Source: an uncultured Phycisphaerales bacterium
Lineage (GTDB): Bacteria > Planctomycetota > Phycisphaerae > Tepidisphaerales > Tepidisphaeraceae
Assembly: GCA_963755915.1 (NCBI GenBank)
Contig: CAVWLP010000003.1
Location: forward strand, 832,001 to 896,000
Direction: 5' to 3'
DNA length: 64,000 nucleotides
Part shown: positions 56,958-63,766 of the stretch, one piece after another
How the letters are laid out: the number at the start of each line of letters is the position of its first letter
Numbering within the stretch: position 1 is the first letter of the stretch
Translations under genes and position numbers: made by a program
The notes under the pieces: model-generated
What the model saw: the letters and a program-made list of their open reading frames with translations, nothing else
Database searches by the model: none
What the model was told of the DNA's origin: nothing

Positions 56958-57040
56958 TTTTCTTGGCGCTCTTGGCGTCTTGAGCGAAGCGGGCGGTTAT
57001 AAGATTTTTAACCGCCAAGACGCCAAGAGCGCCAAGAAAA
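56958..57040. repeat. ~80-bp palindromic repeat, empty copy 1 (IS target family)
   Basis: TTCTTGGCGCTCTTGGCGTCTTG-AGCGAAGCGG-GCGGTTA..TAACCGC-CAAGACGCCAAGAGCGCCAAGAA. Confidence 0.95.
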
Positions 57041-59379: not shown

Positions 59380-59459
59380 TTCTTGGCGCTCTTGGCGTCT
59401 TGAGCGAAGCGGGCGGTTATAAGATTTTTAAACCGCCAAGATGCCAAGAGCGCCAAGAA
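59380..59459. repeat. ~80-bp palindromic repeat, empty copy 2
   Basis: Nearly identical to 56958-57040 (C>T at 59442, one extra A in the loop). Confidence 0.95.
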
Positions 59460-60826: not shown

Positions 60827-61184
60827 ATGTGGGAGGTGGAATATACGGACGAATTCGGCCAGTGGTGGGATGCACTGACTGACGCCCAACGAGTCGCGGT
60901 CGCGCGGAGCGTCGAGTTGCTTAAGAAGTTGGGCCCGGCATTGCCCAGGCCGCACGCCGATACGGTGAAGGGCTCGCGGCACCCTAATATGAAGGAACTT
61001 CGCTGCCAATGCGGCGGCAAACCCCTTCGAACATTCTTTGCCTTCGATCCTCGCCGATCTGCAATATTGCTCATCGGCGGCGACAAGACGGGCGATCGCC
61101 GCTTCTACAAGCGAATGATCCCCATTGCCGATGACCTTTATGACACTCATCTGTCCGAACTTCGAAAAGGAAGGGTTGATGTGA
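60827..61184 (+). CDS. RelE/HigB-like (Gp49-type) toxin
   Basis: WEVEYTDEF, GPALPRPHADTVKGS, MKELR, FAFDPRR, GGDK; likely true stop TGA 61182-61184 if one A of the 61165-61168 run is spurious. Confidence 0.8.
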
Positions 61185-61522
61185 TGGCCGGCCACCACAA
61201 ATTCAGCGAACTTCGGGCGCGGATGTCCGCCAAGTCCCGTGCCCGCGCCGGCACGGCGCAAGAGGATATGTCCAAAATGCTCCTGGCCGAAATCCGTAAG
61301 CTTGCCGGGCTGACACAGGAGCAGCTCGCGGCCCAGCTTGGTGTGAAGCAGCCGAGCCTTTCACAACTCGAATCGCAGCAGGACATGCAGATCAGCACCC
61401 TCAAGCGGATTGTCGAGGCGCTCGGCGGTGGATTGGAAATCGTCGTCACCCTCCCCGGCAGGCGTATCTCCCTGAGCCAATTCAAGGATGGCCGGGGACG
61501 CAGACGCAGCAGCGCGGCTTAG
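61184..61522 (+). CDS. XRE-HTH antitoxin (HigA-like)
   Basis: LAEIRK..LTQEQLAAQLGVKQPSLSQLE..DMQISTL; ATG 61184 in a TGATG overlap. Confidence 0.8.
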   Translation: MAGHHKFSELRARMSAKSRARAGTAQEDMSKMLLAEIRKLAGLTQEQLAAQLGVKQPSLSQLESQQDMQISTLKRIVEALGGGLEIVVTLPGRRISLSQFKDGRGRRRSSAA

Positions 61523-61578
61523 TTGTGTCGGGGAAACTGAGGACAGAACCCTCCATTTGACTCATGCGTCTTTTGCAT

Positions 61579-61640
61579 TTCTTGGCACTCTTGGCGTCTT
61601 GAGCGAAGCGGGCGGTTATAAGATTTTTTAACCGCCAAGA
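61579..61640. repeat. Left part of palindromic repeat copy 3, interrupted by the IS
   Basis: Matches the empty copies up to ACCGCCAAGA (61631-61640), then IS sequence begins. Confidence 0.93.
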
Positions 61641-61751
61641 AACTATGAAGCCGAGCCTTTCTCGGGACGTGAACGGGGTCAAAATGCCCCAAGTATGAAC
61701 GAGCGTACCGCGTAGGTCGCTCAAACGTCTTTTTTGAGAAAGGACTCGGCA

Positions 61752-62795
61752 ATGCGAATTCTCGCTTTGGACCTGGGAAAGAACAAGAGCGTTTTTGTGG
61801 ATTATGTCACCGGCGGTGGAGAAAGAACGTTCGGCAAGATCGGCACCAATGCCCACGAGGTGCAAAAACTACTCGAGCGGGTGCGTCCGGATCGACTGGT
61901 CATCGAGGCCGGTCCGGCGGCAGGATGGGTTTGTGATCTGGCGGAGCGGAACAATGTTCCCGTCCAGGTGGCCAATGGCAACGATGAACGCTGGCGCTGG
62001 AAGACGGTGAAGGAGAAGAGTGATCGTAAAGACGCGCTGAAGATGGCGGCGATGTCGGAGATGGATTCGCTGCCGACGGTGCACGTGCCCAAGGCATCGG
62101 TTCGGCAGTGGCGTTCATTGATTGAATACAGACACGGCCTGGTGGATCGCCGCACGGCGCTCAAGAACTCGATCCGATCAATCTACGAGCGGCAGGGTTT
62201 GTATTTGCCCTCGGCGACCAAGGCGTGGACGAAAGCGCGACTGGAGGAAATGAGGAAGGAAGCAGCGGCCGCATCGGCGGAAGATCTGTGGCTGTTTCAG
62301 ATCGGTTGTGAGGTGGCGCAACTGGAGCACCTGGAGAAGCAGATCGAAACTGTCGAAAGCAAGCTTCAGGAGTTGGGCCAGGCCAACAAAGCGGTGAAAC
62401 GATTGCAGGAGGTGCCCGGCGTTGGTCCGCGGCTGAGCGAGGCGGTGGCGGTGATCATTGATGATCCCAGGCGATTCAAGAATGCACGTCAGGTGGGATG
62501 TTACGTGGGTCTGACGCCGCGGCGCTGGCAGAGCGGCGACAGCGATCGCCAGGGGCGGATCAGCAAGGCAGGCAACGCGCTGCTGCGGGAGTTGCTGGTG
62601 GAGGTGGCGTGGCTGGGGGTTCATCGCAATACGTGGATGAAGGACGTGTACGAGAGGGTTCTACGTGACAGCGAGAAGCGCAAGAAGATCGCGATTGTTG
62701 CGGTAGCCAGGAGATTACTGGTGAAGCTGTGGGCGATGCTGCGGGACGGAACCCGATGGAGAGAACCCCAGCGATCGCTGACGGCGGCCACTTGA
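61752..62795 (+). CDS. IS110-family DEDD transposase/recombinase
   Basis: GAAAGGA RBS; ALDLGK (D), VIEAG (E), KSDRKDA (DD), VPGVG, GLTP..QSG (Ser), GRISKAGN, AVARRL; frame intact. Confidence 0.95.
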   Translation: MRILALDLGKNKSVFVDYVTGGGERTFGKIGTNAHEVQKLLERVRPDRLVIEAGPAAGWVCDLAERNNVPVQVANGNDERWRWKTVKEKSDRKDALKMAAMSEMDSLPTVHVPKASVRQWRSLIEYRHGLVDRRTALKNSIRSIYERQGLYLPSATKAWTKARLEEMRKEAAAASAEDLWLFQIGCEVAQLEHLEKQIETVESKLQELGQANKAVKRLQEVPGVGPRLSEAVAVIIDDPRRFKNARQVGCYVGLTPRRWQSGDSDRQGRISKAGNALLRELLVEVAWLGVHRNTWMKDVYERVLRDSEKRKKIAIVAVARRLLVKLWAMLRDGTRWREPQRSLTAAT

Positions 62796-62942
62796 AAATC
62801 GAAAAGGCGATGACTGTCCCGACAAGTCGGTACAGGCGATGGAGTATCTCCCCTCCGGAAGACACCGTGTCAGAAAGCCGTTGTCTTCTGTGCAGGGGAT
62901 TGAGTAGAGTTGAAGTGAAGTGGAATTGACGCGTTCGTGCAG

Positions 62943-63095
62943 GTTGAATGAGCAAGGCCAGACCCCGGTTGGCGTCTTAAGCTTCAAAGCTTGCCGCTAA
63001 GAATAGGGCTGGCCATTTGTACAGTTGAATAGGCCCGCCGCCAGGCGAGAGCACTGAATAGAAGGCTCACCCAATCGACCGCATGAGCGATCAAC
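62943..63095 (+). ncRNA. Predicted bridge RNA / seekRNA (ends approximate)
   Basis: Stem GGCCAG-A-CCC (62956-62965) / GGG-CTGGCC (63006-63014) encloses an internal loop with TTGGCGTCTT (62969-62978) and CCGCTAAGA (62994-63002), matching the two halves of the target; ATAGAAG (63058-63064) matches the IS right end plus core. Confidence 0.8.
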
Positions 63096-63121
63096 GCCCC
63101 TTGACAAGGCTCGGCTCATAG

Positions 63122-63143
63122 AAGACGCCAAGAGCGCCAAGAA
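63122..63143. repeat. Right part of palindromic repeat copy 3
   Basis: AAGACGCCAAGAGCGCCAAGAA followed by TTCAGA, as in copy 2. Confidence 0.93.
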
Positions 63144-63211
63144 TTCAGAAGCCATTCAACTCATTGGTTTTAAATCTCTGCGCTCTTTGCGGTGTCCAGC
63201 GCAGCGGGCGG

Positions 63212-63766
63212 TTAAACTTCGCCGGCGGCGGACTCCTGCTCTTTGCCTTTGGGGACAAAATCAAATTGGTATTTTTCTCCGAGGTGCTCGCGGGTCATGT
63301 GGATGATTTCCTGGGTGTGGCCGCGGAAGTGGGAGATGGTGTTGGTGATGGCGGCGAGGACGGTGGTGTCAAAGCCCTGGATTCTTCGGGCGGAAATAAG
63401 GTCTGTGGCGGTGAGGCGGGAGAGGATTTGGTCGGCTTCGATTACGGTTGATTGGAGGAGGGCGAGGATCTCGGTTTTGGGGCGGTTGGAACGGTCGGAA
63501 AATTCCTGGGGGCGATTGCGGATGTCCTTTTGGTTGCCGACGCCGGCGATGAGCCATTGGCGGAGGTTGCCGGAAAGGTGGAGGCAGAGGTTGGCGATGC
63601 TGTTCATCTCGGGGCGGGGGCGGTGCCAGAATTGCTCTTCATTGAGTTGGGAGGCGCAGTGGTCGATTTTCTGCAAGCCTTCGGAAAGGGTTTCGCGCAT
63701 GGCCGCTTTAAACGAGCGGCAGAGTTCATTGACTGCTATAGAATCTGGGGTTTTTGCATCACTCAT
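63212..63766 (-). CDS. DinB/DUF1572-family protein
   Basis: NSIANLCLHLSGNLRQW, RNRPQEF, SHFRGHTQEI. Confidence 0.85.
   Translation of the reverse strand: MSDAKTPDSIAVNELCRSFKAAMRETLSEGLQKIDHCASQLNEEQFWHRPRPEMNSIANLCLHLSGNLRQWLIAGVGNQKDIRNRPQEFSDRSNRPKTEILALLQSTVIEADQILSRLTATDLISARRIQGFDTTVLAAITNTISHFRGHTQEIIHMTREHLGEKYQFDFVPKGKEQESAAGEV

Follow-up and report, generated by a model that had tools for sequence, protein, structure and literature searches.

The 64-kb window analysed here is a stretch of 64,000 nucleotides (nt) from an uncultured Phycisphaerales bacterium (contig CAVWLP010000003.1, positions 832,001 to 896,000), and it carries at 61641-63125 a 1485-bp element of the IS110 family, IS1111 type. 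We propose that this element is a new insertion sequence (IS) whose DEDD recombinase is directed by an RNA from the element's own 3' non-coding region, a reading to which we assign a probability of roughly 0.88. The anatomy of the element, its site specificity, the complementarity between guides and target and the co-variation of the two among five related elements were established in this analysis. In addition, we infer that the RNA is made and bound, that there is a circular intermediate with a promoter at its junction, and that the RNA possesses a donor loop.

In the proposed mechanism, the 3' non-coding region would encode a seekRNA/bridge RNA in which one internal loop bears two short guides. 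Guide T would pair with the top strand of the core and the right flank, guide B would pair with the bottom strand of the left flank and the core, and jointly they would restrict insertion to CCGCCA[AG]ACGCCAA in a single orientation. Recombination would take place at the AG/CT core common to the target and to the joined ends, which would read CTCATAGA-AG-AAACTATG, and no real target duplication would therefore arise. The site forms part of an arm of a palindromic intergenic repeat that belongs to a small family, and this family would provide several harmless landing sites per genome.

Anatomy of the element and its insertion site

An initial annotation made from the letters of the window had described a precise insertion into a palindromic repeat with empty sites in the same window. 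When 61641-63125 is excised, the remaining bases at 61631-61640 (ACCGCCAAGA) and 63126-63143 (CGCCAAGAGCGCCAAGAA) together restore the uninterrupted repeat found at 57011-57038, with 28 of 28 bases identical. The tetranucleotide AAGA is present at both junctions (61637-61640 and 63122-63125), and because it makes the exact joint ambiguous in the window's genome, the boundaries 61640-63124 that we use below are equivalent to 61641-63125. The sub-terminal inverted repeats (IRs) named in the same annotation have a perfect core of 11 nt (61649-61659 / 63106-63116), which was extended by eye to CTATGAAGCCGAGCC / GGCTCGGCTCATAG with 14 of 15 positions matching, and they are offset from the core-adjacent ends by 3 nt on the left and 1 nt on the right. 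Within the element, about 112 nt of non-coding sequence precede an open frame of 347 amino acids (aa), and about 329 nt follow it. On each of these points the annotation was confirmed.

The encoded protein possesses an N-terminal DEDD RuvC-like domain, matched by Pfam PF01548 (E 2.9e-10, 40.6 bits, cutoff 29), and a C-terminal PF02371 domain (E 2e-24, 86.2 bits, cutoff 21.3) that contains GLTPRRWQSG; it also matched the NCBIfam model NF033542, 'IS110 family RNA-guided transposase', with 216.6 bits (cutoff 140). Its PDB relatives IS621 and ISCro4 (8wt6, 9t56) aligned over the C-terminal domain only (E 1e-16 and 3e-18). Passages of PMC11187229 characterise the IS1111 type by sub-terminal IRs, a long downstream non-coding region, the motif GL-P----S/TG and a transposase of 330-350 aa, and the IRs of this group are given as 7-17 bp in parts of PMC11208160 and PMC11187229. 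The IRs, the 3' region and the protein length of the present element fit this description, as does GLTPRRWQSG, which was read by eye in the translation without alignment to family members. The assignment to the IS1111 type of the IS110 family, which had been made beforehand, is thus supported by the listed features. Among 72,556 plasmid records the best match to the transposase shared only 40% aa identity, which indicates a new element; the plasmid matches were annotated only as 'IS110 family transposase', and the nearest named relatives are metagenome-assembled Planctomycetota genomes.

Copies in the genome and the palindromic repeat family

The genome from which the window comes (G000; 6.6 Mb on 3 contigs, with 81% completeness and 8% contamination) contains nine full-length copies of the element. 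Seven copies have the same sequence, and the other two each differ by a single substitution within the transposase gene. The ends and flanks of the other copies had been set beforehand as the test that could refute the reading, and the same ends and the same flanks were found in nine of nine: TAACCGCCAAGA (12 nt) lies directly to the left and CGCCAAGA (8 nt) follows AAGA on the right, in the same orientation. Beyond these 12 and 8 target bases the flanks are unrelated, and the nine copies are therefore separate insertions.

The interrupted arms of the palindrome (61579-61600 and 63122-63143) form a 22-nt inverted repeat, 95% complementary, that brackets the element. Thus, one might regard the arms as the element's own terminal IRs, with 61579-63143 as the mobile unit and the empty sites as excision scars or miniature derivatives. 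However, the left palindrome arm is absent from three of the nine occupied sites, where the likeness on the left is limited to TAACCGCCAAGA, and the arms are therefore not terminal repeats of the element. The same ends also occur in unrelated flanks in three relatives (G011, G154 and L101), and the copies of a fourth (G001) lie elsewhere in the same arm, so that we consider this explanation scarcely credible.

The uninterrupted 20-mer AACCGCCAAGACGCCAAGAG occurs in the genome 14 times exactly, 27 times with at most one mismatch and 34 times with at most two, and there are 23 hairpin cores of the repeat. In the window, a variant empty site with AAGA at 59438-59441 reads ...AAACCGCCAAGA-TGCCAAGAG. 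The initial annotation had argued that only the right arm of the repeat can be used. This holds for the asymmetric repeat copy at the present locus, but not in general: five occupied repeats have an exact hairpin core, and in three of these the other arm holds a perfect, unoccupied target; moreover, the sister element in G001 uses the other arm type. The repeat copy at the element deviates from the consensus copy at 56960 in two places: base 61587 is A where the consensus has G, and the loop has a run of six T's (61620-61625) where the consensus has five. The metagenome contigs that run across the element locus carry the consensus form.

A putative guide RNA in the 3' non-coding region

Two short segments within a predicted loop of the 3' non-coding region correspond to the insertion site. 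Guide T is 100% complementary to the core and right flank over 10 nt, while guide B matches the left flank and core over 9 nt, one of these positions being a U opposite G. When the non-coding region was shuffled 1000 times, both exact matches were reached 0 times for the element of G000, 0 times for that of G001, 6 times for G011 and 7 times for G154. Guide T lies 5' of guide B and both matches overlap in the target, which is the order given for IS1111-type seekRNAs in passages of PMC11187229, where the top-strand match precedes the bottom-strand match and the two overlap in the target. According to a part of PMC11208160, a bridge RNA is predicted in the right end of 93% of IS1111-group elements, and the putative RNA of the present element has this location. 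This guide RNA, which would explain the site specificity of the element, had escaped the initial annotation. A longest-match matrix over the whole region with G-U pairs allowed was also tried, and it was too noisy (for example, the GGCCAGA stem of the G000 element matches a G011 flank by chance); therefore, homologous loop positions were relied on instead.

Guides co-vary with targets among related elements

A DNA search of 41 genomes recovered full-length relatives in G001 and G011 only, and a protein search of 141 genomes of the order yielded 12 with E values up to 1e-60. Five elements could be compared (Table 1), and they have five different targets: the guides change with the flanks.

Table 1. 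Insertion-site flanks and putative guides of the five elements
Element	Identity to the window's element	Copies	Flanks (left...right)	Guide T	Guide B
G000	100%	9/9	CCGCCA[AG]...[AG]ACGCCAA	UUGGCGUCUU (complement AAGACGCCAA)	CCGCUAAGA
G001	90% (DNA)	4/4, identical	ACGCCA[AG]...[AG]AGCGCCAA	UUGGCGCUCU (complement AGAGCGCCAA)	CGCUAAGA
G011	73% (aa)	13/14	CAGGCCAGA...AAGCC	GUUGGCUU (complement AAGCCAAC)	AGGCCAGA
G154	68% (aa)	2	GCTACAGA...AAGGG	ACCCUU, weak	GCUACAGA
L101	51% (aa)	1	GATAAAAAG...AGTTCAATT	AAUUGAAC	AAAAAGA

The closest comparison is provided by the element of G001, which is inserted into the same repeat family in all four of its copies, 8 bp further along the arm than in G000. The only guide differences between the two elements are at 62975-62977, where TCT is replaced by CTC, and with this change guide T is exactly complementary to AGAGCGCCAA. 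No change is seen in guide B, which nevertheless fits since the arm contains the unit CGCCAAGA more than once. Both types of site exist side by side: a G001-type site is intact and unused beside six of the nine G000 copies, including the present locus, where its core would be 63131-63132, and a G000-type site is intact 8 bp upstream in one of the four G001 loci. In G011, the ends of the element are the same as in G000 and the middle of the non-coding region has diverged; its 14th copy has no recognisable left end. In G154 and L101, too, the homologous positions of the loop are occupied by the flank sequence of the element concerned. In addition, the closing stems of the loop vary in sequence and stay complementary (GGCCAG/CUGGCC, GCGGCA/UGCCGC and GACGAC/GUCGUC).

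This co-variation is the main evidence that target choice depends on the RNA and not solely on the protein. If the protein alone chose the target by sequence-specific DNA binding, the guide matches would be coincidental or remnants of targets. The RNA and its binding are predicted, and the difference between the G000 and G001 proteins, about 10% of residues, could in principle shift the site. However, five elements carry their own flanks at homologous positions of a structurally conserved loop, and the guide change from G000 to G001 is the exact complement of the target change. Furthermore, the RNA was essential and reprogrammable in experiments on other IS1111-type elements reported in sections of PMC11187229. 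Target choice by the protein alone is thus very improbable.

More distant relatives were of little help. Those with 39-48% aa identity (G059, G060, G073 and G085) were tried as a test of the donor loop described below and set aside, since they occur in rearranged copies whose ends could not be located; the conserved donor-loop motif was absent from all 15 loci searched among them. Locus L106 (71% aa identity) lies at a contig end, lacks the non-coding region and was likewise discarded. Within G060, three copies of a 46%-identical relative (L110, L118 and L126) are about 95% identical to one another, and a left-end block of about 35 nt, enclosed by a CTGTGG...CCACAG hairpin, varies among them; this block may be a guide that differs between copies of one genome.

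The shared core

The initial annotation had taken AAGA, found at both junctions, as the core shared by element and target. Its presence at both junctions holds, but the core itself is shorter. In the uninterrupted repeats targeted by the relative in G011, 54 of 75 pattern matches (a hand count of the listed matches), against one control match, read AGGCC-AG-CCA, whereas occupied copies read AGGCC-AG-AAACTATG...CTCATAGA-AG-CCA. Therefore, only AG (CT on the other strand) is common to the target and the ends, and the two extra A's of AAGA in the window match by chance. An alternative empty form in G011, AGGCCAGA...AGCCA, gave two matches, neither of them in a repeat, and was rejected. Insertion is thus sequence- and orientation-specific without a true target duplication, given that flanks and orientation are shared by nine of nine copies and only AG is common. 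The repeats used in G011 constitute another, much larger family of about 150 nt (...CAGGCC-AG-CCARC...TTCGCAGCGCC...ATTCGAGCC...AACGATAAAA), for which a loose pattern gave approximately 75 matches against one in the control; they are represented by loci L067-L096 and by the flanks of L053-L061.

Candidate donor loop and junction promoter

Directly after the target loop there is a second stem-loop (63015-63070), which is conserved in the four elements that share the same ends and which probably holds the element's own end sequences. Its bases 63058-63064, AUAGAAG, equal the right end ATAGA followed by the core AG, its apical stem lies at 63035-63047, and ACAGUU at 63021-63026 is nearly complementary to the left end AACTAT. 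The motif AUAGAAG is found in the four elements whose right end is CATAGA+AG, while L101 has AUAGGAG together with the right end CATAGG+AG.

An outward-facing TTGACA near the right end may be one half of a circle-junction promoter. This hexamer is conserved in G001, G011 and G154 and reads TTGCCA in L101. A scan of the integrated element found no sigma-70-like promoter, and this fits the junction-promoter idea stated in a passage of PMC11187229. According to part of PMC12288879, a junction promoter was reported for ISPpu10 and not for ISPpu9.

Activity of the element

The initial annotation had called the element probably active. All nine frames are open, with at most one substitution in 1485 bp, and many targets are unoccupied; these findings agree with that claim, and the element is probably active as judged from its copies. 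At least part of the stretch is represented in 20 public sequencing runs, in all cases as contigs, and four soil-metagenome runs of one study contained 89-93% of its sampled words (Logan contigs). In run X4, a contig of 593 nt covers the unique left flank (61400-61640) and continues into CGCCAAGAGCGCCAAGA, as would be expected if the element were missing from this locus; compared with the window, the contig shows one base difference and a difference of one T within the repeat. This contig adds weak support, and because a contig path through a repeat can be chimeric, the empty allele in X4 is only a hint.

It is improbable that the element, while genuinely of the IS1111 type, is no longer mobile and owes its nine copies to a past burst or to recombination between repeats. 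The circle junction and the transcript were both unseen and the integrated element shows no sigma-70-like promoter, as such an element would; however, silence in the integrated state is also expected if expression depends on a junction promoter. The near-identity of nine open frames and the unrelated outer flanks, which mark separate insertions, argue against immobility, as does the X4 contig, which joins the unique left flank of the locus to an uninterrupted repeat and is itself a possible chimera.

Evidence weighed against RNA-guided insertion

Several observations weigh against the proposal that an RNA of the element guides its insertion. First, unconstrained folds pair guides T and B with each other, which is expected because both guides cover the core, and they provide no independent support. 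An Rfam scan of 61400-63400 with E up to 1 returned only a chance match to a C/D small nucleolar RNA (18.7 bits, cutoff 39). The sole RNA-library contig, 62755-62959 at a depth of 2.2, ends in the 5' closing stem, short of both guides; it could be DNA carry-over and shows neither transcription nor its absence. Second, the circle junction gave 0 matches as a 17-mer in the assembly, and among the joints and loose ends listed for the contigs of the four runs (four loose ends excluded) there was none, with the limit that contigs drop rare forms. Third, the loops are not uniform. In G001 the CU that would pair with the core lies one position nearer to the apical hairpin than in the other four elements. 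Guide T of G154 is no longer than 5-6 nt and shares bases with the conserved scaffold CCC. The 3' side of the candidate donor loop equals the right end plus core in five of five elements, with only one co-varying base. On its 5' side the match to the left end spans no more than 4-6 nt, and this side could equally be the stem partner of CUG.

Features of the locus

The features of the element, its RNA and the neighbouring repeat copies are collected in Table 2. Just upstream of the repeat, a 231-aa frame (60827-61522, +) appears by eye to join a RelE/ParE-like toxin N-terminal half to a helix-turn-helix, antitoxin-like C-terminal half.

Table 2. Features of the element and of the repeat copies (positions in the window)
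Feature	Position	Strand	Remarks
Empty target, uninterrupted repeat copy	56960..57038	+	core AG 57018-57019
Second uninterrupted repeat copy	59384..59459	+	right flank TGCCAA, not CGCCAA; would give a G-T pair with guide T
Left part of interrupted palindromic repeat	61579..61639	+	layout as in empty repeat 56960-57038
Outer arm of left part	61579-61600	+	
Inner hairpin of left part	61611-61636	+	
Left target flank CCGCCA	61632-61637	+	
Left copy of core AG	61638-61639	+	
Insertion sequence	61640..63124	+	1485 bp; AAACTATG...CTCATAGA plus one AG (core AG convention); nine copies 99.9-100% identical
Left sub-terminal IR	61643..61659	+	CTATGAAGCCGAGCCTT; conserved in G001, G011, G154 and L101
Transposase/recombinase gene	61752..62795	+	347 aa from ATG; upstream TTG 61734 would give 353 aa
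58-nt module	62835..62892	+	CUCCCCUCC + hairpin 62858-62867 / 62879-62888
Proposed target-binding loop of seekRNA/bridge RNA	62956..63014	+	from folds and comparison with relatives
Predicted loop closing stem	62956-62961 / 63009-63014	+	GGCCAG / CUGGCC, extended by CCC/GGG
Putative guide T	62969..62978	+	UUGGCGUCUU; complement of top strand A[AG]ACGCCAA = core + right flank (63122-63131)
Predicted apical hairpin of target loop	62979-62992	+	
Putative guide B	62994..63002	+	CCGCUAAGA; equals top strand CCGCCA[AG]A (left flank + core); would pair with bottom strand
Candidate donor-binding loop	63015..63070	+	conserved where ends are conserved; weaker inference than target loop
TTGACA, outward-facing -35-like hexamer	63101..63106	+	18 nt from left end once ends are joined
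Right sub-terminal IR	63106..63121	+	AAGGCTCGGCTCATAG
Right core AG and right part of repeat	63123..63143	+	core AG 63123-63124; ACGCCAAGAGCGCCAAGAA

A 58-nt module shared with other elements and a host locus

Between the transposase stop codon and the guide RNA lies a 58-nt module (62835-62892). In the same genome, two IS21-family elements have a sequence about 85% identical to this module at the 3' end of istB. It is identical at 58 of 58 positions between the elements of G000 and G001, while these elements differ by 10% overall. In addition, over 43 of its 58 nt the module shows 93% identity to a single-copy locus, conserved within the family, which lies at about 786190-786290 of contig C3 in G000 (L062, about 490-590) and at L038-L048. 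This host locus looks like a small RNA (sRNA) gene. In an alignment of 16 hits from 14 loci, of which one row comes from an unpublished genome (G014), it is common to 12 rows, and it shows a promoter-like upstream box, a first hairpin GCGCCUAYGGCGC and an unpaired, C-rich stretch AUUUUCUCCCCUCC; its terminator hairpin displays compensatory changes and precedes a U tract. The copies in the IS1111-type element and the two IS21 elements correspond to the 3' half of the host locus without the U tract. An Rfam scan of the host locus gave no match.

One idea, which we hold to be doubtful, is that the 58-nt piece is a portable RNA module derived from a conserved host sRNA gene and carried by three unrelated mobile elements; it would then consist of a C-rich, anti-Shine-Dalgarno-like single strand and a terminator hairpin without U tract. 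If functional, the module might lend the elements the protein-binding, stability or processing signal of the host RNA, or act as a decoy for the partners of the sRNA, and it would link host RNA regulation to transposon RNA. As a separate and likewise tentative idea, the crossover might slip by one base relative to the RNA scaffold, as the G000/G001 pair suggests.

Both IS21 elements (istA/istB), which lie outside the window, have TGTCA...TGACA ends and carry the module in the 3' tail of istB. The first is about 2880 bp long and present 31 times, and its first gene contains a 24-bp tandem repeat of variable extent. The second has nine copies with 1826 bp in common and seems to be missing most of istA. 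An example of an IS21 copy is found on the side of C3:146115-149052.

Comparison with known systems

The mechanism proposed here is not new, and palindromic extragenic repeats have already been published as targets. Tobes and Pareja are said to have described in 2006 that IS110-family elements target palindromic extragenic repeats. RNA-guided target choice, programmability and natural re-direction have been reported for the family in passages of PMC11187229 and PMC11208160. A full-text literature search, which is a thin basis, found no paper on such IS1111-type elements in Planctomycetota. The present locus adds a well-delimited, multi-copy IS1111-type element from this phylum with all of its parts mapped, together with a graded natural series of five elements and five targets, and it should be useful for work on the way in which the length and register of a guide determine the specificity of bridge and seek recombinases.

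The IS621 or IS110-type system (Durrant et al. 2024), as described in parts of PMC11208160, resembles the present element in combining a DEDD recombinase with an element-encoded RNA that has internal loops. The loops of the IS621 type base-pair with each strand of the target and of the donor in the region of a CT core, and the candidate donor loop of the present element is indicated by one co-varying position. Compared with the IS621 passages of PMC11208160, the RNA of the present element would lie in the right end instead of the left, and the order of the guides is reversed.

ISPpu9 (excerpts of PMC12288879) and ISPpu10 (excerpts of bioRxiv 10.64898/2026.03.19.712850) resemble the present element in having multi-copy palindromic intergenic repeats as targets, and in these excerpts a GC-rich stem-loop likewise stands immediately 5' of the insertion point (here GGCGGTT...AACCGCC). 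Three of the nine occupied sites lack the partner half of this stem-loop; therefore, it is either not required or was lost afterwards. In ISPpu9, an sRNA gene forms a separable module downstream of tnp according to a part of PMC12288879, and the 58-nt host sRNA-like piece occupies the same place here.

The closest known systems also include ISEc11, ISXne4, ISPa11 and ISKpn4 (Siddiquee et al. 2024). As presented in passages of PMC11187229, these elements share with the present one the sub-terminal IRs, a transposase of about 340 aa and a long downstream region, and they also have guide T 5' of guide B, overlapping matches, orientation-specific insertion and natural re-direction between relatives. 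The G000/G001 pair represents an unusually clean case of natural reprogramming, in which three guide bases and one 8-bp unit of a tandem motif are concerned and the other guide is unchanged. The value of the element lies in this minimal three-base re-direction: three adjacent guide bases correspond to a shift of 8 bp within one repeat arm, whereas ISEc11 and ISXne4, in the account given in a section of PMC11187229, have only 3 of 13 target bases in common.

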